Assembly (NCBI GenBank): GCA_951812945.1
Contig: CATOTB010000006.1
Location: 77,335-141,334, forward strand
DNA: 64,000 bases
Reading direction: 5' to 3'
DNA from: Candidatus Dadabacteria bacterium
Lineage (GTDB): Bacteria > Desulfobacterota_D > UBA1144 > Nemesobacterales > Nemesobacteraceae
The notes beneath the pieces were generated by a model. The model was given only the letters and a program-made list of their open reading frames with translations. It was not told where the DNA came from and ran no database searches. Below are positions 331-24,665 of the stretch, in pieces. Made by a program: the position numbers and the translations under genes. The stretch's first letter is position 1; every line of letters begins with the position of its first letter.

Positions 331-404
331 GAGTGAGGAGAAAAGACCTGCTTCTTCCGTTTTCTTACATTCTTCCGAAGTGCCTTGACACGACATGACC
401 GGTC

Positions 405-656
405 ATGAATACTGGTCATATGACAACCATTAATGCATCTGATTTCAAGGCACGGTGCCTGGCCATCCTCGATCGCGTTCATGAGACCGGCGAACGGGTG
501 GTTATCCTGAAGCGTGGTAAGCCAGTTGCAGAGCTGTCACGTGTGGTCAGCGAGGGAAACCGGTATCCTCAGAGTGAACTGGAGGGGACGGTCATCATAG
601 CTGGCGATGTCATGGAACCGGTGTTTCCAGAGGAGCAGTGGGACAGCCTGAAGTGA
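405..656 (+). CDS. Type II antitoxin, Phd/YefM family
   Basis: 83 aa, ...TINASDFKARCLAILDRVHETGERVVILKRGKPVAEL..., a typical Phd/YefM N-terminus. Overlaps the downstream PIN-domain gene by ~19 nt. Confidence 0.7.
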   Translation: MNTGHMTTINASDFKARCLAILDRVHETGERVVILKRGKPVAELSRVVSEGNRYPQSELEGTVIIAGDVMEPVFPEEQWDSLK

Positions 657-1054
657 AGAATGTGTTGCTCGACACACATATCCTGCTGTGGTGGCATGGA
701 GACCGCCGTCGGCTGTCTCGGGATCAACAGGACGTTATTGCGTCTGCCGACGCAGACTCGCCGTTGCAGGTATCCGATATTTCGCTTTGGGAAGTGGCGA
801 CGCTGCACAGTCTGGGTCGTATTCGCCTGAAGATTCCCCTCCGGGAATGGTTGGAGAAAGCGGTTGCACCTCCGCTGGTGCGGCGACATGGCATCTCCCC
901 GGCGGTAGCGGCCGAGTTAGTGTCGTTGCCGGATTCCTTTCATCGCGATCCGGCAGACCGCATTCTCGTGGCGACCGCCCGTGTGCTCGGCGCGACGCTT
1001 CTGACTCAGGACCACAGAATCGTCGAAGCTGAACTGGTTGACACGCTGAGCTGA
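638..1054 (+). CDS. vapC: PIN-domain toxin, VapC family
   Basis: 138 aa with the conserved acidic PIN residues (LLDTHILLW ... DPADRILVATA ... LLTQD). Translationally coupled to the upstream antitoxin. GC-rich. Confidence 0.75.
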   Translation: MGQPEVKNVLLDTHILLWWHGDRRRLSRDQQDVIASADADSPLQVSDISLWEVATLHSLGRIRLKIPLREWLEKAVAPPLVRRHGISPAVAAELVSLPDSFHRDPADRILVATARVLGATLLTQDHRIVEAELVDTLS

Positions 1055-1079
1055 TATCGAGGTAAGCGGGTCGGCGGCG

Positions 1080-1107
1080 GCATCGACATAGTGCTCGGGG
1101 AAGTCGA
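1080..1107 (+). repeat. Direct repeat copy 2 of the nuoD 3' end. Stays in frame through a stop and encodes ...[12 protein letters not shown]
   Basis: Exact 28-nt copy of 296-323, followed by ...tcgctga. Lies immediately downstream of the Phd-VapC module. Confidence 0.9.
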
Positions 1108-1247
1108 TCGCTGATTAAATTAGGAAAAACTGCCGCAACCTTTGGGTTGTTTACGTCTCTCTCCGTTGGCCGCGTGCTCATTTGACGCAATCTCGGAACA
1201 CCGGCTACTCTTTACGCCAGCGATGAAACCTGATTGGGAGGTTCAGC

Positions 1248-2996
1248 TTGGCGTCAACCCCTACAAACGACCACATCCGCTACGAGCCGGATGAGAAGTG
1301 CACGCCGCTCTCGTCCTTCGTCGTCGGCATACAGGGCATCGTGCTCGTGCTACCGCTTGCGGTTTCGATAGTGGTTATCAATGTTCTGGCGACCGGCCAG
1401 GACGAAGCATACCTGACCTGGTCCGTATTCTCGGCGCTGATAATCGTCGCGATAGTCACCGCGCTGCAAGCCTCCAGGATAGGTCGATTTGGCGCGGGGC
1501 ATCTGGTCGTCATGGGAGTGACGCCCAACTACATCCCGCTGTCGGTGCTCGCCTTGGATGAGGGAGGGCCAGCGATGCTGGCCAGCCTGATGGTTGTGTC
1601 CGCGTTCTTTTTCTTTGCGATAGCGACAAGGCTTCCGCAACTGCGGCGCGTGATAACGCCGACTGTGTCAGGCACAGTTCTTATGCTGATAGCCGTGATG
1701 GTGCTGCCCATCTGTTTGGATCGATTCGGGGAAGTACCGGAGGGTGCGCCGACATCCGCTGGGCTGTGCGTAGCTTTGGTAACGCTTGTGGTATCCACGG
1801 CGCTGATGCTGCGCGCCCCGAGGCGCTGGCGTCCGTGGTCCATACTGATCGGATTTGTGTCCGGCTGCATGGTCGCTGCCCTGTTGGGAGTGTACGACCT
1901 GGAGCCACTGTACACAGCACCGTGGGTCGGCATTCCCCAAGTCGGTTTCCAGGGATTGGACCTTACACTGACTGCCGGATTCTGGGCGCTGCTGCCGATG
2001 TTCTTGATTGTCACTCTGGTGCAGGCGATCAAAGGCATTGGAGACAACGTGGTGATTCAGCGGGTGTCGCGGCGCAGACCGAGGACGACCGATTTCCGGC
2101 TGCTGCAAGGTTCGCTCTACTCAAATGGGGTGGGTGTTTTGCTGTCGGGTCTTGCCGGAACGCCTCCTGCATCGCCATATTCGTCATTCACGGCGTCGGT
2201 CGTGAACATGACGGGAGTTGCCGCCCGCAATGTGGGATACGTCATAGCGATCATACTTCTGGGACTGGCATTGCTGCCAAAGTTCACGGGCGCGCTGCTC
2301 ACCATACCCAGTCCGGTGATGGGGGCATTTCTCTTGGTTGCTGTGGGAATATTTTTTGTCGAGGGAATACAGACTATCGTGCGGGACGGACTTGACTTTC
2401 AAAAGACCGTTGTGGTAGGCGTGTCGTTCGCGCTTGGCGCCGGGCTCGAGCAACAAAACATTCTTGAGAACTTGCTGGTGCACCCGTGGGGCACACTGCT
2501 TGGCAACGGCATCACTGTGGGCGCGGCAACGGCGATTGCGCTCAACGCCTTCCTGAATGTGACCAGTCCGCGTTCCAGGAAGCTTGAGATTCGACTGGAC
2601 TTTTCCGACCTGCCACGAATTGATGCCTTCATGCGGGAAGTTGCCGCCGATATGGGCTGGAGCGAGGAGGCGACCCAGCGGCTGCGTTCGGCGGGCGAGG
2701 AGACGCTGTCGAGCCTGTTACAGCCGGACAGCGGATATCCCGCGGATGGTGAGACGGACAAGGCTCCGCGCCTGATCATAGCCGTGCGTCCCGACGGCAG
2801 AGCAGCGGAGATGGAATTCATCTCGACGCTTGAGGACGAGGAGAACTTGGAGGACCGTCTTGCGTATCTGAATGAAGAGGACGAAAGCGTGGATGAGAGG
2901 GAAATATCGTTCCGCCTGCTGCGTCATTATGCTTCATCGGTGCGCCACCGGAAATATCAGGGGATGGATGTCGTTGCGGTGCGGGTCCAAGCGTAA
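1248..2996 (+). CDS. NCS2/SulP-fold (APC superfamily) permease with a ~150-aa C-terminal cytoplasmic extension (STAS-like or other regulatory domain, unresolved)
   Basis: 582 aa. TTG start preceded by GGGAGG. The N-terminal ~430 aa is polytopic membrane protein with a G-I-Q-G...PNYIPLSV pattern reminiscent of xanthine/uracil (NCS2) permeases. The C-terminal tail is soluble and acidic. GC-rich, inside the island. Confidence 0.55.
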   Translation: MASTPTNDHIRYEPDEKCTPLSSFVVGIQGIVLVLPLAVSIVVINVLATGQDEAYLTWSVFSALIIVAIVTALQASRIGRFGAGHLVVMGVTPNYIPLSVLALDEGGPAMLASLMVVSAFFFFAIATRLPQLRRVITPTVSGTVLMLIAVMVLPICLDRFGEVPEGAPTSAGLCVALVTLVVSTALMLRAPRRWRPWSILIGFVSGCMVAALLGVYDLEPLYTAPWVGIPQVGFQGLDLTLTAGFWALLPMFLIVTLVQAIKGIGDNVVIQRVSRRRPRTTDFRLLQGSLYSNGVGVLLSGLAGTPPASPYSSFTASVVNMTGVAARNVGYVIAIILLGLALLPKFTGALLTIPSPVMGAFLLVAVGIFFVEGIQTIVRDGLDFQKTVVVGVSFALGAGLEQQNILENLLVHPWGTLLGNGITVGAATAIALNAFLNVTSPRSRKLEIRLDFSDLPRIDAFMREVAADMGWSEEATQRLRSAGEETLSSLLQPDSGYPADGETDKAPRLIIAVRPDGRAAEMEFISTLEDEENLEDRLAYLNEEDESVDEREISFRLLRHYASSVRHRKYQGMDVVAVRVQA

Positions 2997-3039
2997 CGAC
3001 GGCTTGGATTGGCGAGCCAGCGCAAGGGAAAGGTCGAGT

Positions 3040-3945
3040 TTACGTAGTGATAATCGGCTCGATGAACTCAAGCATGGACTTGACGCATTCCTCTGGCTTT
3101 TCCAAGAGAAGAAGGTGCGTAGCGTCAGGCAGGAAGTCGTAGTCTACGGAGGACATATCACTCAGGTCGAGTGTTGGCAGGTATGAGTATGGCAAGGTCG
3201 GGTCAGCCCCGATGACCTTTGTCGGGCAGAGGAGCGACTGAAAGTCCACGAGTACGGCAAAGGCGCTTGCGTACTCTATTATCTGCGCCTGGTACTCAGG
3301 AGGGCAACAAGGTTCATACCCCTCTCCATTCTCACGCTCACGCAGGGTTGTTCTTGCATAAAGATCGAATACCCCGGGCACCACATGCTGGAAGGCTGGA
3401 ATGTAAGGAAGAATGTCCGCAAGTTCTTGCATGGTTTGAAATCGACTCGTGCTTTGACGGATACCTTTGGCCATACGTTTTGCGATATCTTCATAATCCT
3501 TAAAGCTCCGGCCAGGCTTGCAGAGAGGCGGGTCGAACAGAACCCGCGCTGCAAAGTCGCTGCCTTTTTTGGGTGATAGCAGAGTCGCCAGAGCCGCAAT
3601 TGAGTGGAACATGCCTATTCTGGGCTTTGCTCCATAGTGGCGGTCGATAGCCTCAACAATGGTGTCGTTGTCCTGAACCAATGTTGGAAGGCTATGGTTT
3701 TGAAGATCGCCTACCGGATTCCATCCATGGTTTCTGAGATCGTAGATTATTAGGTCGAAATCATTGGTCAGGAGCGACCAGAACGGATAATACAGGTCGA
3801 CTGCGAGGCCGTTGCCGTGGCTCATAACGAGTCGCGGTCCTGACGGATTTCCATGTTGCCGCAGCGTAATGACGGTTTCGTCGTCCACGCGGACATCGTG
3901 GGTGGAAAGCGGCTCAGGTAACTCCCATACGATTTCTGTAGTCAC
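3040..3945 (-). CDS. Alpha/beta-hydrolase fold protein, possibly a product-release or tailoring hydrolase of the PKS cluster
   Basis: 301 aa. An HG oxyanion motif (MSHGNGL), an HGWNP motif, and a nucleophile-elbow-like GMFHSIAA with a non-canonical F in the small-residue position. Overlaps the upstream PPTase gene by 4 nt, suggesting translational coupling. Confidence 0.55.
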   Translation of the reverse strand: MTTEIVWELPEPLSTHDVRVDDETVITLRQHGNPSGPRLVMSHGNGLAVDLYYPFWSLLTNDFDLIIYDLRNHGWNPVGDLQNHSLPTLVQDNDTIVEAIDRHYGAKPRIGMFHSIAALATLLSPKKGSDFAARVLFDPPLCKPGRSFKDYEDIAKRMAKGIRQSTSRFQTMQELADILPYIPAFQHVVPGVFDLYARTTLRERENGEGYEPCCPPEYQAQIIEYASAFAVLVDFQSLLCPTKVIGADPTLPYSYLPTLDLSDMSSVDYDFLPDATHLLLLEKPEECVKSMLEFIEPIITT

Positions 3946-4715
3946 TGGTAAATTCCTCGTCTTTCTGACACGTTACAGTTCAGTTGCTGTAATGACTGGT
4001 CGCCCAATTGGGACGGGGGAAGCTCATGTGCGATGGCTGCTGAGAAATCCTCGTTGCCAATGTATTCGACGCGCCAGTGCACTTCCGGCAGATGTGGGAA
4101 GCGAAATATGCTTATTCTCTCCTGATGCAAGGCTTGTGGCACTTCGAACTGAGACACATCAAGGGTAAAACCTAGGCCAAGAGCCTTGACGAGGGCTTCC
4201 TTGATGGTCCAGAGTCTGAAGAACAGTTGAACCCTATCCGATCCACGTGCACATGCAAGGGCGGACTGTTCATGAGGACCAAACACGGCTTCGCTCAGTT
4301 CGTCAAAATCCCTTCGGGAGACGCGCTCCTCTACATCCACGCCCAGCCGTCCATGGGGAACAAGAGCTATCAAGCCATGCTTTCTGCTGTGACTGAGGTT
4401 GAAACTGATGGCTGCCGGTTCCCCGTCTACTAGCGCAAACGGCTTTCCATAGTCAGATGAGCCGAAGCTGAGGCGTTCATTGCTGCAACCGAGCTGGCGA
4501 CAGAGGATAGACCGAAGCGCAACACGACACAGAGCAAACCTGCGACGAGGACCTGGGAGCGGATATTGGCGACAGCGCGCCTGCTCTTCCTCATTCAGCC
4601 ATAATAAAGATGATGCCTCACGGCTGGCATTAGGCCTCAGGTCTACATGTATGATGGTAACGGGACCAGCTTTATGGAAGAAACTCCACAAGCACCTTGC
4701 AGCAGAAGTGGACAT
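3942..4715 (-). CDS. 4'-phosphopantetheinyl transferase, Sfp type
   Basis: 257 aa. The two Sfp signature motifs are present (LGVDVEE and WTIKEALVKALG). Sits between the ACP and hydrolase genes of the PKS operon. Confidence 0.8.
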   Translation of the reverse strand: MSTSAARCLWSFFHKAGPVTIIHVDLRPNASREASSLLWLNEEEQARCRQYPLPGPRRRFALCRVALRSILCRQLGCSNERLSFGSSDYGKPFALVDGEPAAISFNLSHSRKHGLIALVPHGRLGVDVEERVSRRDFDELSEAVFGPHEQSALACARGSDRVQLFFRLWTIKEALVKALGLGFTLDVSQFEVPQALHQERISIFRFPHLPEVHWRVEYIGNEDFSAAIAHELPPSQLGDQSLQQLNCNVSERRGIYQ

Positions 4716-4747
4716 CAGATGCCGTTTACCCCTAAAGGAGCGAGGGG

Positions 4748-4993
4748 TTAAGAAGCGTTGGCTTCCAGGTACGCTATCAAGTCTCCAATCGTCGGAATCT
4801 CCCCGGCCTTCTCGGGAAGGAGGGAGACATTGAACTCCTGCTCGATCACTTTGGCGAATGACACTGCGTCCATAGAGGAAACACCCAGGTCAGCAAGGCC
4901 CTTGCCCAGGTCCAGCAACTTGCCTATCGGTTGTCCATCTACCTCCAAGTTTTCGTCTGCAAGTTGTCTCAGCCGCTCTTCAGTTGATGCCAT
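4748..4993 (-). CDS. Discrete acyl carrier protein
   Basis: 81 aa, acidic four-helix-type sequence with DLGVSSMDAV (an LGxDSL-like phosphopantetheine attachment site). Lies 112 nt downstream of the PKS stop on the same strand. Confidence 0.7.
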   Translation of the reverse strand: MASTEERLRQLADENLEVDGQPIGKLLDLGKGLADLGVSSMDAVSFAKVIEQEFNVSLLPEKAGEIPTIGDLIAYLEANAS

Positions 4994-5105
4994 AATATGC
5001 AGTCCTCCTTTTAAGAATTTAAGATATTAGAGCACAATGGTACAATATACAGGTGCTTGGGTCAATCGATTTTTCTCTAGTTTCCTCCGTGACGAGGCAC
5101 CCCAA

Positions 5106-8100
5106 TTACACCCAGTGACGCCTGCGCTGGAACGGATAGGTCGGCAGCGAAATGCGGCGGCGCGACTCCCCGGCGAACATGCCCTCAAAGGAAAGTGCCA
5201 GTCCCGCCTCGTATGCCCCTGCAACCGCTTCCGCAAAACCAGTACTGTCCTCCTCTGAATCCTCGTCGGATGGTCGCATCAGGCTCGCAAGCACGAATGG
5301 TGAGGCGGCAGCTTCCTCTCCGTCCGACGAGTCCGGCCACTGAAGGTTCACCTGCGGTCCCAATACCGCTCCGGGGCCAATCTCCACCACCGTATCCACT
5401 CCCAGCTCGGCAAGCGTGGAAACACCTGTGCCAAACGCCTCAGTTTCGCACGCCTGCGTACGCCAGTACGCCACGTCGAGTGGATTGTCCGCATCCACAA
5501 CTCGCCCCGTAACGCCGCTCACCAGAGTCAGGGATGGAGGTGAGACCGCACTCTCTGCAAATGCCACTTCCAGGCCGTTTAGAGATTGGTTCGGGTCCGC
5601 TCCCGGCAGCGCCGCCATCAGCGTGCCACGAGTCAAGGCAAGGCGCAATCCGTCCTCCAAGGTGAAGACTCCCGCAGCCCACGCCGCGGCAATCTCACCC
5701 GTTCCGTGCCCCAGTGCGACGTTCGGGCGGATCCCAACGCTCGCCCAAAGCGCCGTCAGCGCGCACTCCAATGCATAGAGAGCCGGCTGCGCCCAAGCTG
5801 CATCATTCAAATCGCCCGTTGCTTCGGCGCGCCCGAACATCACATCGAGTAGCGATGCTCCTTTCTCTGCGCGCACCACGGCGTCACAGTGGTCCAAAAC
5901 AGCGCGCACGACCGGCTCGCTGTCGTACAGCGCCTCGCCCATACCAACCCACTGGCTGCCCTCGCCTGTGTATAAGAATGCCACCCTTGTTACAGGCTGT
6001 GGAGCCGGTTTATCAGGCGTAGCGACAGTCTCCGCGAGTTTCGTCAGCCCTGCACGCAGAGACTGCGTATCCCCGAACACTACGGCGGCACGATGGTCAA
6101 AATGGCTGCGTCCGACACTCGCCGTCCACGCTATGTCAGCAAGTGCAGGCGCTTTTGGAGACGACCCGGCAATGTGCTCGTCGAGCCACGACAGGTATTG
6201 TCCCGCCATGTCGCGCAGGGCGCCGTCCGACTTGCCCGATAGCGGCAGGAAACGCACCGTGCGCTCCGTTAGTCCGTCTGTAGCCAGCGGCAGATTCGCA
6301 ACCGGCTCCGGCAGGGAAACGGGCACCGGCAGTGCGGCACCCCTGAGCGACTGCACTCCAGCACTTGCGCTGTCATCCTCTGTCGCGATTCCGTAGCCTT
6401 CCACCACCATATGTGCGTTTGCGCCTGACATGCTGAACGCGCTTACTGCCGCGCGTGGCGGCTTGTCAGAATGGGGTGGCCAGTCGGTTTTTTCAGAAGT
6501 TACCCGCACGGGCAGTTGGTCCCAGTTGATTTGTGGATTCGGCTCCTTGAAATGCAGATGTTTCGGAATGACACCCTGCTTCATCGCCAGCACAGCCTTT
6601 ATCAGGCCGGCAACGCCCGCCGCCGTCTCCAGATGTCCGATATTTGACTTTACGGTGCCTATCAGCAGCGGACAGTCGGCGTCGCGCCCTCTGCCGTACA
6701 CCGAGCTGGCTGCGTGTACTTCAATTGCGTCGCCCAATTGGGAACCTGACGCGTGCGCTTCGAGATAGTCAACATCCGTTCCGGTGAGACCCGCCCGAAC
6801 AAGCGCCGCCTCCATAACACGTTCCTGTGCTGGACCGTTCGGGACGGTCAATCCCGCGCTTGTCCCGTTCTGGTTAACAGCAGAACCCTTGATGACGCCC
6901 CATATTCGATCTCCGTCAACCTCCGCCTCGCTCAGCCGTTTTAAAACGAGCATTCCGCAGCCCTCGCCGCGTACATGACCGTCCGCAGAAGCATCAAAGG
7001 GGTGACACTGCCCGCTCGGCGACAGCATCCCCACATCCAGCATGAATCTGGAAACATCGTGCGACAGAGCCGCATGCACGCCTCCGGCGAGAGCCAGGTC
7101 CACCTCGCCCCGCTGTAGCCCACCAACGGCTTGATGCGCCGCAGCCAATGCTGAGGCGCAGGCCATATCGATGGCCATCGCCGGGCCCTCCAGACCCAGT
7201 GCGGACGCGACCCGCCCGGTGGTGATGCTGGCCGTTGTGCCGAGGTGAATGCCAGTCTTACCGCTGGCCTCAATCACATGTCGGTATTCGCTGCCGGCGA
7301 CTCCGGCATACACCGCGGTGCGGCTGCCCCGCAGGCTGTCGGGAGCGATTCCAGCGTCTTCGACAGCCTCCCAACTCGTCTCCAACATCATTCTTTGCTG
7401 TGGGTCCATCATCCGCGCTTCTATCGGCGCAATGTGAAAGAATCGTGAGTCGAACCACTCGATATTCTCAACAAACGCACCGTGCAGGTGTGTGGTGCCC
7501 TCGGAGTTCGAGTCTCCAAAGGCGTCCCTACGCGGATCGCCAGCCTGGCGTCCGTCGGTCACTGCGTCAGTGCCCGATTCCAGAAGATGCCAGTATTCCG
7601 AAAGGTTTTTCGCGCTTGGGAAGCGGCATGCCATGCCGACTATCGCTATGTCGTCATCCTCAGTAGCGACGAGTGGGCGCGGCGGGGGTGCGGCTGTCTC
7701 GGGTGTTGGAGCCGTCCCATCGTCCCCATCCAGTTGACCGAGTTCGTCCGCCAGATAATGCGCTAAGGTTGTGACGTCGGGATAGTCGAAGACAGCTGTG
7801 TTGGAGACGACATACTCGCCCGCGAATGCGCGGTTGAGCCGGTTTCTCAGTTCTACTGCCATCAATGAGTCCATACCCAGATCGAAGAACCCCACCGTTG
7901 GCGTCGGCGCCGACGGCAGCCGCAGAACTGCCTGTACTTCCCCCTGCAGGAATGACACCAGCATGCCTTCGCGTTCCGCCACAGTCGTCTTCCGCACTCT
8001 GGACATCAGGTCGTCCGCCTGAGCGGGCGAGTCGGCGTCGGCCTCGGGACTGGTGGACAGCAGGTCTTCTAGCAGGGAGGGACGGTCTTCGACAGCCTCC

Positions 8101-11100
8101 TCAAAAACTGCCCAGTCCATGGACATCACCACGGAATTCGTTACGTCCTGGCGCACAAGTCTGTCAAACGCCCTGAGACCTTGCTGCGGTGTAAACCAGC
8201 GGCCACCGAGCGCCGCTCGTTGCCGTTCAATCCGGTCTCGTTGTTCCGCCGCTTCGCCGATCTCTGACCACGCCCCCCAGGCAATGGCCTGTCCCGGAAG
8301 CCCCACCGCCCGCCGGTGGGCGGCGAGCTGGTCCAGGAACGCATTGGCTGCGGCGTGGTTTGCCTGGCCCGGATTGCCCATGACGCCAACTCGGCTCGAA
8401 AAGAGGATGAAGAGCTCCAGATCGCGGTCCGCCGTCGCACGGTGCAGGTGCCAAGCGCCCAGCACTTTCGGCCACAGCACCTGCTCGAACCTCTCCCAAC
8501 TCTGGTTCGACAGTGAAGCGTCCGACAACACTCCCACGCTGTGAATCACTCCGCCGAGCGGCGGAAGTTCCCGATCCATCCGCGCCAGCATGTCGTCCAC
8601 AGCTGAGGCATCCGTCACATCTGCCAGTTCCACCCTCACCGTGGACCCGCGTTTACGCAACGAGTCGATCTCTTTTTCAACCTCGGGGTCTGGTGGTCGT
8701 CGTCCATTCAGCACGATCGCCCCCGCACCGTGATCCGCTAACCAGCCGGCCACGGCGCACCCGATACCGCCCAGGCCGCCGGTCACCAAGTAGGTCCGGT
8801 CCTGCCGCAAACCACCCCCCCCCGCAAGCGGTGGTGTCGTCACGACGATCTTCCCGAGGTGCCGGGCCGATCGCATGAATCTCAACGCAGCTCCCGCTTC
8901 GGCCAGGGGCCACCTGCTGTGGATAAGCGGTTTCAGTTCTCCCGCCGTAAGGCGCTCCATCACGTCCCGGAGAACCCTTCCGACCCAAGCCGGCTCAGTC
9001 TTCTTCAAAACATCCAACTCCAGGATGGAGTAGGCAACGTCGGGACGAACTGCCGCCATCTCCTCCTCGCTCAGAATGTCCCGCCTGGCCAATTCCACAA
9101 ACCGGCCACCCTGTGCTAGGCATGACAGACTCGCCTCGATGAATCCCTCTCCCGTCAGGCTGTTGAGCACCACGTCGACTCCTGCGCCGTCCGTGGCCTC
9201 GAGGATCTCTTCCCCGAACTTTGTCGTGCGGCTATCGAACACATGCTCCACACCGATGGAACGGAGATAGGGCTGCTTCGATGCACTCGCCGTGGTATAC
9301 ACCTCGATGCCTACAGCACGCGCCAACTGGATGGCCGCGAGTCCCACACCTCCAGCACCTGCGTGAATCAGCACCCGTTCGCCAGCGTTCAACCCTGAGA
9401 GCTCATACGAGAATGCGGCTGAGACGAACACATTCGGCACCGTGGCGAGACCCGTCACCGAGATTCCCGATGGCGCGGGCGCCACCAATTCCTCCCGTAT
9501 GATCATTTCGGCCGCGAACGCACCACCGAACCCCAATCCAACCACATGATCGCCGGCCGAGACGGTTGACACCTCGGAACCCACATCGAGCACGTGGCCA
9601 CACATCTCCTTGCCTAAGTTCCCCTCTTCAATGAAGCCAAGCGAACGAAATACATCCCAGAAATTCATTCCGGCAGCCTCGACCGCGACGCGGACTTCTT
9701 TCGGCTCCAGGGAACGCTCCGGCAGCGGCTTGACGTAAGGCTTGTCGAATATGCCGTCCGGGTCCGGAGCCAGCACCCAGGCCGACTGCTGCGGCAATGT
9801 TAACCGCTCCGTGTTGGTCCCGGCCCGGACCAGGCGGGCTACCATACGTCGGCCGTAGCGATGTGCGATGTGATTCTCGTGATCGGGATACAGCAGTTCG
9901 TCCGGGAGTTCAGGCGACTGCGTTTTTGAGGGGTCCAGGTCAATCATCCTCGGCTTTAGATGCGCCGCTTCGCGGGACACCACCTTCCCGAAACCCCATA
10001 GCGTCGCGCCGGCAAGTTCCCCGCCAAGCTCCTTCTCCAGCACCTGCGCGCCCCGCGTAAGAAACCACACTCCGTTCTCGGGCACCGCATCGGAGTCAAC
10101 CAGCCCCTGCGTCAACGCCAGTGCGCTCGCCACCGCTCGCCTCGTGTCCTTCGCCATCTCTTCGTTTGTCGCATTCAGGCCGTGGCCGCCCAGCGCCACG
10201 AGGTGCACGACTCCTTTCAGAGGCGCATCCCCGGGTAGGCACTCCAACAGCGATTGCCACGACTCGCGCCGCTCCATGTCCACCGTTGACCGGACAATGC
10301 CGGACCCGTCCACTTCTGAATTCCCGTTCTCCGGGAGTTGATGGTCCGCCAGCACGACTGTCTGGTTGCGTGCGGCCAGATCTGCTGCCAGTTCTTCGGC
10401 CACGCCAGCGCTGTCCGCCGCCAGAACCCAGATGCCCGGTCTTTCGGTCACCTCAGCCGGACCCCGCGCCACGATCACACCCTTATCCGGCATCTCGGCC
10501 GAGTCGGACTCTTCCAACCCCAGCACTTCTATTTCCCCGAAACCCACGTCAGTGAGTACGCGACGCCACACAGCAGGATCCACCAAGGCGTGTTGCGGTC
10601 GGTAGGCATCGGCGAACCGCCACCAGCCGTCCAACGGCCCGAAAGTCAAGTCCATCCAACCCATACCCCTCAGGTTCTCGAGCGCGACCAGCTGTCCTGA
10701 TGGCGCGAGAAGCCGCCGGCAGTGCGCAAGCGTCTCATTTAGGTATTGCGTGGCGTGCAACACATTGGATGCAATCACCAGGTCGTAACCGTGGAAATCG
10801 AATCCCTGCTCCACCGGATCCTTCTCGATATCCAGCATGCGGTAATCTATCGACGCTTCATCGCCTCCGAAGCGCGCCTCTGCTTCCGCAAAGAAGCCCG
10901 CCGAGATATCCGTGTACATGTAGTCGAACCGTCCTTCCGGGAGTTCCGGCAGGATGGCCGCGGTCGCCGACCCTGTACCCGCCCCGACTTCGATCACCCT
11001 GAGGCGTCGGCCGTCGGGCAACCCCGCCACAAGAGTCTGAACCGTTTCTCTCAGTATCCGGTTCGCCGCACGCGCCACCGGAGCTTTTCGATACAGATCG

Positions 11101-14100
11101 CCCGGGGTCGGGTCTCCGCTGCTAAACAGGATTGTCAACGGGTCCGCTCGGCCCAGCAGCACGTCTGCCAGGGCGTTACCAGACCGTCGAAAAAGCCCGA
11201 TCTCGGTCAAGCCGTGGGGATATAGCTCAGCTATTCGGGTAGCGAATTCTTCTGTGTCAAGCGGCATTTCATCCGGCAAGGGATCCCCGGATCCGATCCT
11301 CACGACGAAGTTGCCGTCCACCTCCTCCAACACTCCGGACTTGGCCAGCATCTCGAGCATCCGGCGGAACAAGCGCTTATGCTCCTCCACGACATTCAAG
11401 CGCCGCCGCAAGTCCTCTGAATCCACGGCCGCGCCCCCCTCGCGTTCCCACCCCAGCTTCTTCAAGGTCTCTAGCGCGCAGGATCGAGACCACCTCTCCA
11501 GGTCAGTCAGGAGGGCGCTTCTGTCCTTGGGCGTGACTCCTTCGTCGGCCAAATAATCTGAGAGCAACCCCGAGCGCGTTGCAACCGTTGCCTGAGACGC
11601 GAGGAAATCTGCGGACAGCATTCCGGGCGTGAGAGCCCTTTCGCGCCACACAACCTCATACAGCAGTTCATTCACCCCTTCGACTGCGGAGAGCAGCGCC
11701 GCCCGCGTCGCGCGTTTCACCATGTATCCGCTCAACCCGCCAAGCAGAACTCCATTGGGATCGTAGATGCGCAATTCTCCGTTCCAGACCTCGGGCGGCT
11801 CGCCCTGTTCCACTTCCGTTCCTTGGGAAGCCTCACTCATGCGCACGTGGCAGAGCAAGCGATCCGGCAGCCGATCCGCCAGCCACAGTCGCTCCCAGCC
11901 AAATGGTAGATAGGTGGTTTCCTCTTCTGCCCCGCCTGGATTGCGCGCTGCGGCCATAACCTGAAAGCAACCGTCCAGCAGGAGCGGATGAACGTCCAGC
12001 CCGTTGCGGCCGAGAGCTTCAGGGAAAGAAATCTCGCCTAACGCCTCGCCCGGCCGGGACCAGACCCTCCCGAGCGTACGGAAGAACGGGCCGAGATTAA
12101 TCCCCGTACTGGCCCGGGCACGGTAGTAGGCTGCCACGTCTATTGGCGACAGAGGGGCCTTGAGGCTTTCGAGATCGATCCGCCTACCGGCTTCCGGCAT
12201 CGGGGCGTCCGGCGATACGCGGCCTTCCACGTGTAACGTCCAGCCCTCTCCACTCCCCTTGCTGAATATCTGGACACGACGCGAATTTGCCCGCTCGGAA
12301 GAATCAAGCACAACCTGCACCTTTCGGCCCTCGTCACCGGTACCGTCCTCGGAACCCTCCTCCGGGAAAATCAGCGCGTTGTGCAGCTGCATGTCCTCCA
12401 CAACCACCGCGCCGCTCTCTTCTGTAAGGGATACCGATGCCGCCATGGCCCCATAGAGCGCGCCCGGAGCTATAACCCGGCCGAACACCCGGTGGTCGCT
12501 CAACCACTCCGGATCCGACCGGAACACTTCTGTCTCGAATGTGACCTCGCCGCTGGCGGATTCGTGCCGGACCCCCAGCAAGGGGTGGCCGACGCCCGAG
12601 CGTTGTTTTCTATTTGAATCAAGCCAATGGCGTTCGCGTTGGAATGGATAGCTTGGCAACGAGATGCGACGGCGCGCCTCCCCCGCGAAGAGCCCTTCAA
12701 AACGAATCGGGAGCCCCGCCTGATACGCTTCCGCGACCGCCCGCGTGAAATCGGCGCCATCCGCGGACGCTCGGGATTCACCAGACGGTGGGCGCAGGCT
12801 TGACAGCACCGTGGGTGGCGGTGTCTGTACCGAGTCCGGCCAAGCCGCGCCCGTCATCGTGGCCAGGATCGGTCTCGGCCCTATCTCCAACACCAAGTCC
12901 ACCCCGAGTTCCGCCAACGTCCGGACACCGCGGGCGAACGCCACCTTCTCGCGGGCATGCTGCCTCCAGTAGGCTCCGTCCAGCGCTTGGCCAGGCTCCA
13001 GCGCTTGGCCAGTCAGGTTGCTGACCACGGTGAGGGAGGGTGGTTCGATCGCCACACTATCCAAGGAAGCTTCCAGCATGTCCAGAGCTGGCTCCACCAA
13101 GGCGCTGTGGAACGCGCGGGCTGTGTTCAGCCGTCTTACCCGGACTCCTTCCGATTCGAAGCGCTTCGAGATGGTTTCAATCTCTGCAACCGGGCCGCTC
13201 ACCACTTGGTGGCCGCCGTTGTCCGCCGAGATGCTCAGCCCAGCACTGGCAGATGATTCGTTCAGCTCCTCGACCGTTGACGCCACTCGTGCCGGAGTGG
13301 CAAAAACCGCTGCCATTGCGCCCGGTTCGGTTTCCGACAGCAGGGTGCCCCGCGCCGCGGCAAACCGCATTCCATCCTCCATGCTGAACACTCCCGCTGC
13401 CTGCGCCGCCGCCAGTTCCCCGACACTGTGCCCCAACACCACGCTGGGACGAACCCCTACACTCGACCAGAGCGCCGTGAGCGCGCACTCGAGGGCGTAG
13501 AGGGTCGGCTGCTCCCACGCCGTATCGCTCAGATTGCCTTCGCCGCACCCGAACATCACGTCAAGCAACGAGGCGCCTCTTTCAGCCCGAAACACCTCCT
13601 CACAGCGGTCGAGAACCGCCCGCGCCACCGGCTCACGTTCGTAGAGCGCCTTTCCCATGCCGGCCCATTGGCTTCCTTGCCCGGTATAAACAAACGCCAC
13701 TTTCATCGCTGTTTGCGGCCCTGGACTCTCGCCCACATTCCCCAGCGCTTTCAGCCCCTCCCGTAGCGACCCGGTATCCCGAAACACCACGCCTGCACGA
13801 TGATCAAAATGGCTCCTCCCTACGCCTGCAGTCCACGCCATGTCCGAGAGTAAGGGTTCTAAAGAGGTGCTTTGGGAAGCAAGATCCTCTGGATGCTCGT
13901 CCAGCCACAAGAGGTAACGCTCCGCAAGTTCCCGGAGTGCGGTCACCGATTTGCCGGACAGCGGCAGCAACCGGGTCTCGCGCTTCCTTAACCCTTGCTC
14001 AGGCAGCGGCAAACTCTCCGCGGCCTTCGGCAAAGAGACTGTCACTGTCTGGGCTGAGCCAACAAGCTGACGCTTCCCGTAGGGCAATTCCCCTGGGGCA

Positions 14101-15479
14101 ATGTATTCTTCCACCACTATGTGGGCGTTCGTCCCGGATATCCCGAAGGAGTTTACTCCTGCCAGTCGCGCCCGTCCGCCACGCTGAGGTAAGTCCATCA
14201 TGGACGAAGTAACCTTTAAAGGCAGTTGGTCCCAATCGAGGCTAGGGTTGGGAACCTGGAAATGCAGGTGCTTCGGAATCACGCCGCGCTGCATCACCAG
14301 CACTGCCTTGATCAGACCAGCGATTCCGGCAGCCGACTCGAGGTGGCCGATATTGGTCTTTACGGAACCGATCAAAAGAGGATGATCGGCTTTGCGTCCT
14401 CTGCCGTAGACAGCGGAGACGGCCTCGATCTCAATCGGGTCGCCTACAGCTGTTCCAGTTCCGTGCGCCTCCAGGTAATCCACATCCGAAGCGGGAACTC
14501 CGGCCTGCGACAGCGCCGCTTCCATCACCTGTTCCAATGCGGGGGTGTGCGGTACGGTCAGTCCGGTGCCGGGTCCGCCGTTATTCACCGCCGAGCCTCG
14601 GATCACCCCCCAGATCCGATCGCCATCCTCCTCGGCCTCGCTCAGCCGTTTCAGGATAACGACGCCGCAACCTTCACCGCGCACGTAACCGTTCGCAGAC
14701 GCATCGAACGTCTTGCACTGCCCGTCCGGAGACAGCATCATCGCATCCGCACGGAGTTCGAAAATGCGACTGTTCAGGATGGCCTGCACACCGCCTGCAA
14801 TGGCCAGATCCGCCTTGCCCTGCTGCAGGTCTGCCACCGCGTCGTGGACCGACACCATGGACGACGCGCACGCGGCGTCCACTGCCTTTGCTGGTCCCAT
14901 GAGGCCCAGCACGAAAGAGACCCGTCCGCTGGTACCGTTGAGGTTTGTGCCGCTCAGAGCATAAAGACATGAGGCGGCCTCGGCAGGTTTCCTTGACTCC
15001 ACTACCAGCATCCTGTATTCGTCGTTGCTGATCCCGGTGTATACCCCGGTGCGGCTGCCCTTCAGCCGATCCGGATCCATACCCGCATCCTCAAGAGCCT
15101 CCCAAGTGGTTTCCAGCATCATCCGCTGCTGTGGATCCAGCAACTGGGCCTCGACCGGAGAAATACGAAAGAACCCCGCGTCGAACTGCTCGATTCCGTC
15201 GACATAGCCACAGAAACGACAGGCCTTGCTCGGAATCTGTCCATCGGGGAAAAGCTCGTCCATACGCCCGACGCCGGAACCTGGGACGCCCTCCGTCACC
15301 ACGTTCTGGCCGGCTTCGAGCAGGCGCCAAAAGGCCGGTATACTCGGTGCGCCGGGGAACCGGCACCCCATGCCCACGATTGCTATCGGTGGACCGAGTC
15401 CAGATTTTTCCTGTCTCTGAATTTCAGAGTGGGGCGATGATTCCCCAGAGGAATCGCAAGACTTGTTTGATTCCGTCAT
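5106..15479 (-). CDS. Type I polyketide synthase with domains KS-AT-DH-cMT-ER-KR-ACP-KS-AT(degenerate)
   Basis: 3457 aa, ATG preceded by GGGAGGGAG. KS1: DAACASS Cys, EAHGTGT, NIGHLE. AT1: GHSVGE plus RAFHS (malonyl-type). DH: HRVFGRVIAPG plus LLDGCFQ. cMT: VIEVGAGTGS SAM motif. ER: LIHAGAGGVGLAAIQLA. KR: TGGLGGIG. ACP: FFDLGMDSL. KS2: DMACAS, EAHASGS, NIGHLE. AT2: GHGTGE, no Ser. Ends ...YPFQRRRHWV. Confidence 0.95.
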   Translation of the reverse strand: MTESNKSCDSSGESSPHSEIQRQEKSGLGPPIAIVGMGCRFPGAPSIPAFWRLLEAGQNVVTEGVPGSGVGRMDELFPDGQIPSKACRFCGYVDGIEQFDAGFFRISPVEAQLLDPQQRMMLETTWEALEDAGMDPDRLKGSRTGVYTGISNDEYRMLVVESRKPAEAASCLYALSGTNLNGTSGRVSFVLGLMGPAKAVDAACASSMVSVHDAVADLQQGKADLAIAGGVQAILNSRIFELRADAMMLSPDGQCKTFDASANGYVRGEGCGVVILKRLSEAEEDGDRIWGVIRGSAVNNGGPGTGLTVPHTPALEQVMEAALSQAGVPASDVDYLEAHGTGTAVGDPIEIEAVSAVYGRGRKADHPLLIGSVKTNIGHLESAAGIAGLIKAVLVMQRGVIPKHLHFQVPNPSLDWDQLPLKVTSSMMDLPQRGGRARLAGVNSFGISGTNAHIVVEEYIAPGELPYGKRQLVGSAQTVTVSLPKAAESLPLPEQGLRKRETRLLPLSGKSVTALRELAERYLLWLDEHPEDLASQSTSLEPLLSDMAWTAGVGRSHFDHRAGVVFRDTGSLREGLKALGNVGESPGPQTAMKVAFVYTGQGSQWAGMGKALYEREPVARAVLDRCEEVFRAERGASLLDVMFGCGEGNLSDTAWEQPTLYALECALTALWSSVGVRPSVVLGHSVGELAAAQAAGVFSMEDGMRFAAARGTLLSETEPGAMAAVFATPARVASTVEELNESSASAGLSISADNGGHQVVSGPVAEIETISKRFESEGVRVRRLNTARAFHSALVEPALDMLEASLDSVAIEPPSLTVVSNLTGQALEPGQALDGAYWRQHAREKVAFARGVRTLAELGVDLVLEIGPRPILATMTGAAWPDSVQTPPPTVLSSLRPPSGESRASADGADFTRAVAEAYQAGLPIRFEGLFAGEARRRISLPSYPFQRERHWLDSNRKQRSGVGHPLLGVRHESASGEVTFETEVFRSDPEWLSDHRVFGRVIAPGALYGAMAASVSLTEESGAVVVEDMQLHNALIFPEEGSEDGTGDEGRKVQVVLDSSERANSRRVQIFSKGSGEGWTLHVEGRVSPDAPMPEAGRRIDLESLKAPLSPIDVAAYYRARASTGINLGPFFRTLGRVWSRPGEALGEISFPEALGRNGLDVHPLLLDGCFQVMAAARNPGGAEEETTYLPFGWERLWLADRLPDRLLCHVRMSEASQGTEVEQGEPPEVWNGELRIYDPNGVLLGGLSGYMVKRATRAALLSAVEGVNELLYEVVWRERALTPGMLSADFLASQATVATRSGLLSDYLADEGVTPKDRSALLTDLERWSRSCALETLKKLGWEREGGAAVDSEDLRRRLNVVEEHKRLFRRMLEMLAKSGVLEEVDGNFVVRIGSGDPLPDEMPLDTEEFATRIAELYPHGLTEIGLFRRSGNALADVLLGRADPLTILFSSGDPTPGDLYRKAPVARAANRILRETVQTLVAGLPDGRRLRVIEVGAGTGSATAAILPELPEGRFDYMYTDISAGFFAEAEARFGGDEASIDYRMLDIEKDPVEQGFDFHGYDLVIASNVLHATQYLNETLAHCRRLLAPSGQLVALENLRGMGWMDLTFGPLDGWWRFADAYRPQHALVDPAVWRRVLTDVGFGEIEVLGLEESDSAEMPDKGVIVARGPAEVTERPGIWVLAADSAGVAEELAADLAARNQTVVLADHQLPENGNSEVDGSGIVRSTVDMERRESWQSLLECLPGDAPLKGVVHLVALGGHGLNATNEEMAKDTRRAVASALALTQGLVDSDAVPENGVWFLTRGAQVLEKELGGELAGATLWGFGKVVSREAAHLKPRMIDLDPSKTQSPELPDELLYPDHENHIAHRYGRRMVARLVRAGTNTERLTLPQQSAWVLAPDPDGIFDKPYVKPLPERSLEPKEVRVAVEAAGMNFWDVFRSLGFIEEGNLGKEMCGHVLDVGSEVSTVSAGDHVVGLGFGGAFAAEMIIREELVAPAPSGISVTGLATVPNVFVSAAFSYELSGLNAGERVLIHAGAGGVGLAAIQLARAVGIEVYTTASASKQPYLRSIGVEHVFDSRTTKFGEEILEATDGAGVDVVLNSLTGEGFIEASLSCLAQGGRFVELARRDILSEEEMAAVRPDVAYSILELDVLKKTEPAWVGRVLRDVMERLTAGELKPLIHSRWPLAEAGAALRFMRSARHLGKIVVTTPPLAGGGGLRQDRTYLVTGGLGGIGCAVAGWLADHGAGAIVLNGRRPPDPEVEKEIDSLRKRGSTVRVELADVTDASAVDDMLARMDRELPPLGGVIHSVGVLSDASLSNQSWERFEQVLWPKVLGAWHLHRATADRDLELFILFSSRVGVMGNPGQANHAAANAFLDQLAAHRRAVGLPGQAIAWGAWSEIGEAAEQRDRIERQRAALGGRWFTPQQGLRAFDRLVRQDVTNSVVMSMDWAVFEEAVEDRPSLLEDLLSTSPEADADSPAQADDLMSRVRKTTVAEREGMLVSFLQGEVQAVLRLPSAPTPTVGFFDLGMDSLMAVELRNRLNRAFAGEYVVSNTAVFDYPDVTTLAHYLADELGQLDGDDGTAPTPETAAPPPRPLVATEDDDIAIVGMACRFPSAKNLSEYWHLLESGTDAVTDGRQAGDPRRDAFGDSNSEGTTHLHGAFVENIEWFDSRFFHIAPIEARMMDPQQRMMLETSWEAVEDAGIAPDSLRGSRTAVYAGVAGSEYRHVIEASGKTGIHLGTTASITTGRVASALGLEGPAMAIDMACASALAAAHQAVGGLQRGEVDLALAGGVHAALSHDVSRFMLDVGMLSPSGQCHPFDASADGHVRGEGCGMLVLKRLSEAEVDGDRIWGVIKGSAVNQNGTSAGLTVPNGPAQERVMEAALVRAGLTGTDVDYLEAHASGSQLGDAIEVHAASSVYGRGRDADCPLLIGTVKSNIGHLETAAGVAGLIKAVLAMKQGVIPKHLHFKEPNPQINWDQLPVRVTSEKTDWPPHSDKPPRAAVSAFSMSGANAHMVVEGYGIATEDDSASAGVQSLRGAALPVPVSLPEPVANLPLATDGLTERTVRFLPLSGKSDGALRDMAGQYLSWLDEHIAGSSPKAPALADIAWTASVGRSHFDHRAAVVFGDTQSLRAGLTKLAETVATPDKPAPQPVTRVAFLYTGEGSQWVGMGEALYDSEPVVRAVLDHCDAVVRAEKGASLLDVMFGRAEATGDLNDAAWAQPALYALECALTALWASVGIRPNVALGHGTGEIAAAWAAGVFTLEDGLRLALTRGTLMAALPGADPNQSLNGLEVAFAESAVSPPSLTLVSGVTGRVVDADNPLDVAYWRTQACETEAFGTGVSTLAELGVDTVVEIGPGAVLGPQVNLQWPDSSDGEEAAASPFVLASLMRPSDEDSEEDSTGFAEAVAGAYEAGLALSFEGMFAGESRRRISLPTYPFQRRRHWV
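5310..5990 (-). other. PKS domain AT2, degenerate and predicted inactive
   Basis: aa ~3164-3390. The active-site motif reads GHGTGE (nt 5697-5711) instead of GHSxG. The ~70 aa carrying the specificity motif are absent relative to AT1. Confidence 0.75.
6390..7655 (-). other. PKS domain KS2 (second ketosynthase)
   Basis: aa ~2609-3030. Cys2774 in DMACAS, His2909 and His2949 present. Confidence 0.8.
7740..7982 (-). other. PKS domain ACP (integrated)
   Basis: aa ~2500-2580. GMDSL with Ser2538. Confidence 0.8.
8220..8798 (-). other. PKS domain KR (ketoreductase) with His in place of the catalytic Tyr
   Basis: aa ~2228-2420. TGGLGGIG Rossmann motif. SSRVGVMGNPGQANHAAANAF has H2375 (nt 8355-8357) where the canonical motif is GQxNYAAAN. 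Confidence 0.7.
8835..9782 (-). other. PKS domain ER (enoylreductase)
   Basis: aa ~1900-2215. NADPH-binding LIHAGAGGVGLAAIQLA. Confidence 0.8.
10530..11342 (-). other. PKS domain cMT (C-methyltransferase)
   Basis: aa ~1380-1650. ExGxGxG SAM-binding motif VIEVGAGTGS at aa 1496-1505. Confidence 0.75.
11730..12602 (-). other. PKS domain DH (dehydratase)
   Basis: aa ~960-1250. HxxxGxxxxP with His996, and DxxxQ with D1169. Confidence 0.75.
12810..13700 (-). other. PKS domain AT1 (acyltransferase, malonyl-type signature)
   Basis: aa ~594-890. GHSVG Ser685 and an RAFHS specificity motif. Confidence 0.8.
14106..15389 (-). other. PKS domain KS1 (ketosynthase)
   Basis: aa ~31-458. Catalytic Cys204 is encoded at 14868-14870, and both catalytic His motifs are present. 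Confidence 0.85.
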
Positions 15480-15565
15480 CGAAATCTCCCTCCCAAGATT
15501 ATGAGCTGATGGTTCTGTCTGTTCCCTTAATCTGAACTGTTTCCGTCTTAAAAAACGGTTTTCAG

Positions 15566-15595
15566 TTCACCACTCGAACTATGAAATTCACCACT
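15566..15595. promoter_or_regulatory. Tandem direct repeat TTCACCACT (15566-15574 and 15587-15595) in the PKS upstream region, a candidate operator
   Basis: Two identical 9-mers spaced 21 nt apart, ~90-115 nt upstream of the PKS start codon in a low-GC intergenic region. Confidence 0.2.
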
Positions 15596-24569: not shown

Positions 24570-24665
24570 TTGGTGATTAAAGAATGATAAACTTGCAGGT
24601 GTTATCAGTCAAATAAGTCTTGTCCCGGAACCGGGCCCGCGCGGACGGTTCCCGGAGGATTAACC

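Follow-up and report, generated by a model that had tools for sequence, protein, structure and literature searches.

The DNA analysed in this study is a stretch of 64,000 nucleotides from contig CATOTB010000006.1 (assembly GCA_951812945.1, positions 77,335 to 141,334), which is called the window below. Near its left end, a five-gene cassette with a type I polyketide synthase (PKS) and a toxin-antitoxin (TA) gene pair lie between the host genes nuoD and lolA. In the reading that I consider quite probable, this ~15.4 kb of DNA was acquired by sponge-associated Dadabacteria as a mobile and recombining cassette of the sup ("sponge symbiont ubiquitous") type known from sponge symbionts, the TA pair was inserted later, and the cassette likely makes a methyl-branched lipid.

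Gene content and borders of the locus

The left border of the inserted DNA is the 3′ end of the host gene nuoD (1..330, forward strand; Pfam Complex1_49kDa, E = 1.7e-40). On the same strand follow the genes for a Phd/YefM-family antitoxin of 83 amino acids (405..656; PF02604, E = 1.5e-10; TIGR01552 above its cutoff), a PIN-domain (VapC-type) toxin of 138 amino acids (638..1054; PF01850, E = 1.9e-12), and a transporter of the NCS2/xanthine-uracil permease family of 582 amino acids (1248..2996; PF00860, E = 8e-42). The reverse strand encodes an alpha/beta-hydrolase of 301 amino acids, a putative chain-release enzyme (3040..3945; PF12697), an Sfp/HetI-type 4′-phosphopantetheinyl transferase (PPTase) of 257 amino acids (3942..4715; PF01648 and PF22624), a free-standing acyl carrier protein (ACP) of 81 amino acids with the motif LGVSSMD (4748..4993; PF00550, E = 4.8e-10), and the PKS of 3457 amino acids (5106..15479). 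Based on Pfam, the translation, and the motif positions, the domain order of the PKS is KS1-AT1-DH-cMT-ER-KR-ACP-KS2-vestigial AT. The host gene lolA (15765..16424, reverse strand; PF03548) forms the right border, and ftsK and then nuoN lie beyond it. The first-pass annotation, made from the letters and the open reading frames (ORFs), had listed the same Phd/YefM-VapC, permease, hydrolase, PPTase, ACP, and PKS genes, and this inventory is correct.

Other genomic contexts of the cassette were located via contigs encoding homologues of the hydrolase, and the retrieved loci are designated by L-numbers. The left end of the cassette is the permease 5′ region (1165..1247, forward strand), which blastn aligns with copies from outside the Dadabacteria; homology with two of these, L090 and L086, begins at about 1165-1176, ~80 bp upstream of the permease start. 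The right end is an island-specific region 5′ of the PKS start (15480..15696, reverse strand), since L092, L093, and L094 are homologous to the window from the lolA side only as far as 15697-15753. As had been stated before, no integrase or transposase was found among the ORFs in 331-15764. The window has a single RNA gene, for a tRNA-Thr at 60340, and none at the block. Direct or inverted repeats of at least 10 nt linking the two outer borders were not found, only 9-mers at chance level.

Architecture of the PKS and its putative product

Module 1 of the PKS (7737..15389, reverse strand) is of the fully reducing and C-methylating type. It consists of KS1 (residues 31-458; active-site Cys, LDPQQRMM, EAHGTGT, and NIGHLE), AT1 (594-870; GHSVGE and AFHS), DH (965-1262; HxxxGxxxxP), cMT (1423-1647; EVGAGTG), ER (1929-2216; HAGAGGVG), KR (2228-2411; TGGLGGIG), and ACP (2506-2581; GMDSLM). 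By textbook motif rules, AT1 is predicted to be malonyl-specific. A second ketosynthase with a degenerate acyltransferase follows (5106..7652, reverse strand; KS2 at residues 2610-3028). The KS2 of the window keeps Cys2774 (MACASA) and both His residues (EAHASGS and NIGHLE). The second AT is vestigial (5106-5984, reverse strand; residues 3166-3457). An alignment of KS-AT1 with KS-AT2 and the orthologues revealed that its catalytic Ser is replaced (GHGTGE; GSGTG or GAGTG in other copies) and that its small subdomain lacks ~75 residues, among them the HAFH region. Nearly the entire second AT is deleted in a Chloroflexota-labelled copy.

The KS2 motifs were compared in 13 copies. The Cys is kept in all intact copies, while a His is lost in two lineages, giving NIGYLE in L081, L083, L084, L085, and L091 and EAQGVGS in L088 and L089. 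The NIGYLE lineage includes a truncated PKS (L085) and a split PKS (L091), which suggests either decay of the PKS or a non-elongating role of KS2. The KR has another unusual residue. Its motif ANHAAAN (8343..8363, reverse strand; residues 2373-2379) has His2375 where the ketoreductases of PKSs and of fatty acid synthases (FAS) carry their catalytic Tyr. The alignment is unambiguous, the His being placed on the Tyr of GQGAYAAAN in mycocerosic acid synthase (MAS) and of GYAAAN in the AmphB KR. Besides the window copy, 7/7 orthologues checked (56-91% identity) have this His, with the NADPH motif, the Ser, and the Lys kept. The closest solved relative of this KR is MAS (E = 9e-43).

The ACP, PPTase, hydrolase, and permease genes accompany the PKS gene in every copy. 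The NCBIfam matches of the permease (ncs2/pbuX) are below cutoffs. Its C-terminal extension of ~150 residues (432-582; window 2540-2996) is cytoplasmic-looking, rich in acidic residues, and conserved in all cassette copies, and no Pfam match was found for the C-terminal 141 residues. In the hydrolase, S115, D248, and H277 do not vary among 29 sequences. Its PDB and NCBIfam matches are weak and generic, those to enol-lactonase-type families being far below cutoffs, and the AlphaFold model from the 29-sequence alignment is poor (pLDDT 53.7). The HetI-like NCBIfam match of the PPTase is below the cutoff, as are the matches of the free ACP to the FAS-type AcpP models that it resembles.

These features can be combined into a tentative pathway. 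The PPTase may activate both carrier proteins. Module 1 would act in a FAS- or MAS-like manner, possibly iteratively, with malonyl extension, a methyl branch derived from S-adenosylmethionine (SAM), and full reduction. KS2, which has no working AT of its own, would pass the chain onto the free ACP or extend it there, with AT1 loading the free ACP in trans. The alpha/beta-hydrolase would then release or transfer the product. To judge from the domains, this product is probably a methyl-branched fatty acyl lipid and not a complex polyketide. The architecture fits the published proposal that sup clusters make mid-chain methyl-branched fatty acids (PMC4245539).

Since neither the KR His nor the variable KS2 residues are explained by this pathway, a different product has to be kept in play. 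The cassette might make a short, modified, bioactive polyketide, with KS2 truly extending the chain, the hydrolase acting on a beta-keto product to give a methyl ketone or a lactone, and the permease exporting it. The KS2 of the window does retain all three catalytic residues, the cassette strictly conserves a dedicated transporter and a dedicated hydrolase, the reduction chemistry may be atypical with a His in place of the Tyr, and the weak hydrolase matches are of the enol-lactonase type, far below cutoffs as they are. However, module 1 has the full FAS-like reducing set with MAS as its nearest solved relative, and the loss of a KS2 His in two lineages with the Cys kept fits a transfer role better than obligatory extension; the published sup proposal also points to branched fatty acids. 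Thus, I regard the bioactive polyketide as unlikely and prefer the methyl-branched lipid.

Origin of the block and mosaic PKS alleles

The rest of the window contains housekeeping genes (parAB, purQ, cinA, recA, priA, glnE, nuoF, gatB, ddl, hemDE, and others). The best genome matches of FtsK, at 57-58% identity, are a Candidatus Dadabacteria metagenome-assembled genome (MAG; L001) and a Thermodesulfobacteriota MAG (L002), and the next matches are at most 45% identical over the full length. GatB has a clade of matches at 77-94%, after which the identity drops to at most 70%; the named matches at 65-68% are mostly Candidatus Dadabacteria, Thermodesulfobacteriota, Deltaproteobacteria, and bacterium HR37. 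LolA has relatives at 93-95% on contigs LXNJ01017276 and LXNI01003530, which come from the metagenomes of Petrosia ficiformis and Sarcotragus foetidus (PMC5099237). The housekeeping proteins of the closest relatives, which include contigs from these two sponge metagenomes, are 88-99% identical to those of the window. NuoD is 97-99% identical to that of the sponge-clade relatives and ~80% identical to that of L001 and L002. Judging from these protein identities, the host belongs to the Dadabacteria lineage and is associated with sponges. The related contigs (1.5 to 2.3 Mb) hint at small genomes.

In addition, an AT-rich kilobase (40.6% GC at 25001-26000) was found within ~25000-27200, and the cumulative GC skew has its minimum at ~27 kb, just past parA-parB. 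This region is possibly the replication origin. The ORFs at 24605-25084 and 25422-26093 have no Pfam match.

L001 and L002 share the gene order parA-parB-purQ-cysK-JAB-nuoN-ftsK-lolA, followed by convergent nuoD-C-B. In both, lolA and nuoD are spaced by 390-490 bp with no gene in between. A comparison with relatives had been proposed to see whether nuoD directly adjoins the lolA side, and in these two distant genomes it does. Because lolA directly adjoins the convergent nuoD there, the block in the window is taken to be an insertion between the two genes. It was also considered whether the island splits a nuo operon. This was rejected, since the island-free L001 and L002 share the split, with nuoB-D facing lolA, nuoN 5′ of ftsK, and nuoF elsewhere.

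The spacer holds differing genes in other relatives. In L092, a Petrosia ficiformis contig from a very close relative (LolA 95%, FtsK C-terminus 99%), the genes that come after lolA (969-2617) encode a STAS-domain protein and a protein of 403 amino acids with no family match, and the contig stops before any PKS. STAS/anti-anti-sigma genes also adjoin a SupE-like permease gene in fosmid pPS11G3 (PMC3908369). In L094, from a lineage with a swapped PKS module (see below), a PhyH-like dioxygenase gene lies between lolA and the PKS gene (10944-11903). Because relatives carry such differing extra genes, the nuoD-lolA spacer appears to be a plasticity zone. In the same lineage as L094, L102 and L103 have a fatty-acid hydroxylase gene and an epimerase/3-beta-HSD-type gene between nuoA and a SIR2 gene (15668-17304), and like the PhyH-like gene these are additional genes of a lipid type near the locus.

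The block differs from the rest of the window in composition. Its GC content is 60.0% across 331-15500 versus 50.2% across 15501-64000. In 1-kb steps, GC is 0.60-0.65 at 5001-15000, 0.52-0.585 at 1-5000, and mostly 0.45-0.55 in the remaining window. The tetranucleotide distance from the rest of the window gives z = 4.0-11.7 in all 2-kb windows within 1-16 kb, while the highest z beyond the first 16 kb is 3.3. The GC-rich block described in the first-pass annotation was therefore borne out, and the uniform composition that would have spoken against it was not seen in sliding GC, third-position GC (GC3), or tetranucleotide z across the window. The claim of GC-rich third positions held in part. 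GC3 is 0.69 in both the PKS gene (62.1% GC) and the permease gene (58.8% GC) and 0.64 in vapC (59.7% GC), as compared with 0.54-0.63 in host genes (47-55% GC), but the hydrolase, PPTase, ACP, and phd genes are host-like (52-54% GC; GC3 0.53-0.61). High GC within the block is thus uneven and confined to the PKS, permease, and vapC genes. In the PKS gene, GC1 is 0.68 versus ~0.55 and GC2 is 0.49 versus ~0.41, while GC3 is merely ~0.09 higher than in host genes. Much of the excess lies at codon positions 1 and 2, and therefore it is partly an effect of amino-acid composition. With this qualification, the composition supports a foreign origin of the block.

The cassette was found in many other places. 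The search gave 2549 hydrolase homologues, and among the best 120 the identity is 65-100% and the length almost always 301 amino acids. L081-L084 have the PKS (3456 amino acids), ACP, PPTase, hydrolase, permease, PIN, and Phd genes at the same nuoD site. In L081 and L082, nuoD-C-B-A follow the Phd gene; L083 has only a nuoD fragment, and L084 ends within the PIN gene. The L083 fragment encodes 55 amino acids and is followed by a gene for a eukaryote-like protein of >1055 amino acids with leucine-rich repeats and a Calx-beta domain (13403-16949), an arrangement due either to strain variation or to a chimeric assembly. L091 is a 1.51-Mb contig whose PKS is split into two ORFs. L085, a 2.28-Mb contig, has a PKS cut to 640 amino acids (KS2-AT), with PhageMin_Tail/BNR (phage-tail-like) genes upstream and extra fn3 and outer membrane protein (OMP) genes. 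In L102-L104, the cassette directly adjoins nuoD.

Outside the Dadabacteria lineage, L086 (4.9 Mb) and L090 (0.72 Mb) have the same five genes in the same order with unrelated flanks (amidase, HSP20, HU, and PtsP), and a phage-type integrase gene lies 4 kb away. L088 and L089, in a Chloroflexota-labelled MAG, have the same five genes and a second permease gene. The flanks of L086, L088, and L090 have no gene in common with the window and gave no taxonomic hint against GTDB loci. Identities to the window in L090, L086, and L088, respectively, are 85-86%, 80%, and 65% for the permease, 82%, 77-78%, and 68-69% for the hydrolase, 82%, 76%, and 58% for the PPTase, and 67%, 67%, and 56% for the PKS. 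The permease is 65-95% identical across all cassette copies. As a scale for these values, sponge-clade and non-sponge Dadabacteria share only 79% identity in nuoD, which ranks among the most conserved proteins. The GC pattern of the cassette is nearly constant (PKS ~0.62, ACP-PPTase-hydrolase ~0.53-0.57, permease ~0.56-0.61) across hosts whose flanks have 50%, 57%, and 63% GC, the exception being L085, which is GC-richer throughout. A plasmid search gave only hydrolases of at most 30% identity and no DNA match for the TA pair. Exact-sequence look-ups of the window hydrolase, LolA, and the 100%-identical cluster representative P0001 returned no record.

Within the sponge clade, the PKS alleles are mosaic. 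L102 and L094 represent a close relative whose housekeeping proteins are 84-94% identical to those of the window, with 98% for the nuoD C-terminus. Between L102 and the window, the permease and hydrolase are 94-95% identical, KS2 with the degenerate AT 89-90%, the PPTase 84%, and the free ACP 88%. In contrast, module 1 of the L102 PKS (AT1 to ACP) reaches only 56-76% identity with that of the window but 78-91% with that of L086, the copy on the unrelated 4.9-Mb contig. The breakpoint lies between ACP and KS2. Because module 1 of L102 is nearer to the L086 copy than to the window copy, the block cannot have been inherited in a purely vertical fashion, not even inside the clade. I take these identities as showing directly that symbionts exchange the cassette and that it recombines among them.

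Given the foreign composition, the empty junction in distant relatives, and the 56-86%-identical cassette in unrelated contexts, horizontal acquisition is the best reading of the block. The suggestion that the PKS locus was acquired horizontally is supported by these lines and by the mosaic alleles. The accompanying remark that such a host would not be expected to carry a secondary-metabolite locus was overstated, as the gene set fits a widespread, taxonomy-independent sup cassette. A shared block at the same locus in all close relatives with a congruent phylogeny had been named as the outcome that would speak against acquisition. The first half is seen in close relatives, but their PKS alleles are mosaic and not congruent.

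In the reading that I prefer, piece 1 (~1165-15696) would be the five-gene sup-type cassette, moving and recombining among unrelated sponge symbionts, and piece 2 (~324-1107) the Phd/VapC pair, which would have been inserted later in the nuoD end, with the terminus regenerated and a 32-nt duplicate left behind. Alternatively, the block could be ancestral, its GC-rich look resulting from a PKS rich in Ala, Gly, and Arg, with L001 and L002 having lost it. The codon-position profile goes in this direction (a large part of the PKS excess at positions 1 and 2, GC3 only ~0.09 above the host), and so do the host-like GC of the hydrolase, PPTase, and ACP genes, the presence of cassette genes at the same locus in all sponge-clade relatives examined, and the distance of the empty-site genomes. 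However, an ancestral block does not agree with a 56-86%-identical cassette of near-same GC profile in unrelated contexts, with cassette proteins that are as similar across contexts as nuoD is within Dadabacteria, with an L102 module 1 nearer to the copy in the unrelated 4.9-Mb contig than to the window copy, or with tetranucleotide z up to 11.7, and I consider it quite improbable. It is hardly credible that the junction is an assembly or binning artefact joining the cassette of a GC-richer community member to a Dadabacteria contig: sponge metagenomes do hold many sup variants, and contigs with biosynthetic gene clusters are often mis-binned, as the L081 contig in a Gemmatimonadetes-labelled MAG illustrates, but the nuoD-side junction repeats in independent NCBI, ENA, and JGI assemblies (L081-L084, L091, and L102-L104), once on the 1.51-Mb contig, where the suffix "c" in the record name probably means circular, the lolA-side junction recurs in L094, and the differences among junctions (TA present or absent, an added PhyH-like gene, a truncated PKS) look biological.

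Several points weigh against the acquisition of a sup-type, lipid-producing cassette as outlined here. The outer cassette borders have no integrase, transposase, tRNA, or direct repeat. The empty-site genomes L001 and L002 are distant (FtsK 57-58%), and on that evidence alone a loss in their lineage would be possible. MAG phylum labels are unreliable; L081 (GCA_026706695.1, JAPOYE010000085.1) sits in a Gemmatimonadetes-labelled MAG, probably by mis-binning or mislabelling. The sup assignment draws on gene content, motifs, habitat, and distribution and not on a tree or a SupA sequence, and homology searches with the cassette proteins returned neither a reference SupA sequence, such as those of clones pAPKS18, pSW1H8, and pAE27P20, nor the name "Sup". 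As for the product, a His replaces the catalytic Tyr of the KR, and if the KR is inactive, a fully reduced product would be wrong; a demonstrated product of any sup cluster was not found in the literature searched.

The TA pair, related islands, and sponge-symbiont PKSs

The phd and vapC genes overlap by 19 nt, and both PF02604 and PF01850 are above cutoffs, an arrangement as predicted for a type II TA module. A promoter-like site lies 5′ of phd (385..413, forward strand; TTGACA-17-AATACT), as a consensus match only, at 10/12 positions. The pair is bracketed by a 32-nt direct repeat. Copy 1 (292..323, forward strand) is the last codons of the functional nuoD, and copy 2 (1076..1107, forward strand; 31/32 identical) is what remains of the original nuoD 3′ end and lies at the right end of the TA insertion. 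The two copies are 784 bp apart from start to start and are the two matches in the window, with 0 expected by chance. Copy 2 continues with CGC TGA like nuoD in the TA-free L102, while copy 1 continues with AGG TAG. When window 290-1290 was aligned to L102, the nuoD end and downstream spacer of L102 matched window 1076-1247, with window 292-330 as the second copy. A phd gene was found in L081, L083, L091, and L085 but not in L102/L103 or in the cassettes outside the Dadabacteria lineage. VapC is 94-96% identical in L081, L083, and L091, with no match in L085 or L102.

Because the pair is bracketed by the nuoD-end duplication and a TA-free cassette adjoins nuoD in L102/L103, Phd/VapC appears to be a separate, later insertion of 0.78 kb (~324-1107) into the last nuoD codons, which brought or regenerated the terminus. 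The idea that the TA module is the edge of the island and points to the acquisition of the PKS is contradicted by the same two observations. In L085, a 69-nt duplicate of the nuoD 3′ end (13124-13192 and 17460-17530) brackets genes for an fn3-repeat protein of 933 amino acids and an OMP. Because this cargo is different, the nuoD 3′ end seems to have been used repeatedly as an insertion site, with L085 representing a second, independent insertion. No integrase gene was found near the TA insert, and the insertion could be due to site-specific recombination in trans or to recombination anchored on nuoD homology.

A bolder proposal, which seems possible but doubtful to me, would join three elements: the nuoD end and spacer as a recurrent accretion site without an integrase, sup cassettes exchanged across phyla by recombination within the PKS gene, and a non-canonical reduction and transfer chemistry. 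Modules arriving there would restore the nuoD terminus again and again, as with the TA pair of the window and the fn3 and OMP genes of L085, and co-resident symbionts of different phyla would swap a whole module by homologous recombination with a breakpoint between ACP and KS2. If the KR His and the conservation of only the Cys in KS2 do reflect non-canonical chemistry, the product would be something other than the mid-chain branched fatty acids that have been assumed since 2007.

Integrative islands of the tRNA/tmRNA type insert at the 3′ end of a gene, which is restored by a duplication of the att site. The TA insert resembles them in that the 32-nt nuoD-end duplicate brackets it and the nuoD reading frame is restored. 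It differs in having no nearby integrase and in a target that is a protein-coding gene and not a tRNA gene. The PKS cassette itself has no such repeats at its outer borders. Compared with a classical integrase-borne island, the block shares the deviant composition and the absence from relatives at the site, while an integrase or transposase, a tRNA target, and border repeats were not found, the direct repeats flanking only the inner TA insert.

The nearest solved relative of the KR belongs to the group of MAS and MAS-like iterative PKSs from mycobacteria (PDB 9d2y and 5bp4). MAS works iteratively, has the domains KS-AT-DH-ER-KR-ACP, reduces fully, and yields methyl-branched fatty acids. The methyl branches of MAS come from methylmalonyl-CoA via the AT specificity, with no MT domain. 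The PKS of the window differs from MAS, since its AT1 is of the malonyl type (AFHS) by textbook motif rules and it has a SAM-dependent cMT. MAS also has no second KS-AT and has the normal catalytic Tyr.

Another group of small PKSs from sponge symbionts is encoded by the swf ("sponge widespread fatty acid synthase") clusters, swfA-C. As in the window, these are monomodular, FAS-like type I PKSs that are widespread and found only in sponge symbionts (PMC3908369). SwfA is a KS-AT-DH-ER-KR-ACP protein without MT, its KS has DPQ(I/V)R and HATGT, and reductase-sulfotransferase and radical SAM genes follow (PMC3908369). The identity with swf was rejected, as the window PKS has a cMT, DPQQR, and HGTGT, with no reductase-sulfotransferase or radical SAM gene.

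The sup cluster, supA-E, is known from Fieseler et al. (2007) and Hochmuth et al. (2010), and the names and identities of supB-D and the domain order of SupA reportedly go back to the former. The sup PKS is a small, monomodular, sponge-only PKS targeted by DPQQ/HGTGT primers (PMC3908369, PMC4245539), and SupE is a permease (PMC3908369). In sponge metagenomes it reportedly gives the dominant PKS signal, and its source organisms were still an unresolved problem in 2014 (PMC4245539). SUP clusters were found "independent of taxonomy" in several phyla, namely Chloroflexota, Spirochaetota, Proteobacteria, and Acidobacteriota (PMC9426513). The cassette in the window agrees with these descriptions in many respects. 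Its habitat is that of sponge symbionts, sup being a cluster of bacteria from high-microbial-abundance (HMA) marine sponges. The closest loci, with housekeeping proteins 92-99% identical, are from Petrosia ficiformis and Sarcotragus foetidus, and the record names of other copies suggest sponge studies. It has one small FAS-like PKS with a C-methyltransferase domain, here with an additional C-terminal KS and degenerate AT. KS1 has both DPQQR and HGTGT, and the region between them is 84-94% identical to PKS fragments from Acidobacteriia-, Chloroflexota-, and Gammaproteobacteria-labelled MAGs. A permease gene, whose product is a candidate equivalent of SupE, accompanies the PKS gene, making five genes with those for the ACP, PPTase, and hydrolase, and the cassette occurs in three unrelated genome contexts. 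The difference is the Dadabacteria-lineage host, which is outside the phyla given for SUP clusters (PMC9426513). No link between Dadabacteria and sup was found in the literature searched, and no description of the nuoD/lolA site, the nested TA pair, the mosaic alleles, the KR His, or the degenerate AT2 was found in the sup literature searched.

In gene content, motifs, habitat, and distribution, the cassette matches a sup-type cluster as known from published descriptions, the comparison being with these and not with a reference SupA sequence. Seen in this way, the window has an intact sup-type cassette at a defined chromosomal site in a symbiont of the Dadabacteria lineage, and its relatives display empty, filled, decayed, and mosaic states of the locus. 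For annotation, the lesson is that such a locus represents a lipid-type cassette common to sponge symbionts rather than a drug-like pathway specific to one lineage. The KR His, the dead AT2, and the variable KS2 have to be accounted for in any biochemical model of sup. I consider the locus to be of moderate interest: the sup-type cassette is known, and the nested TA insertion, the mosaic module swap, the KR His, and the dead AT2 are new.

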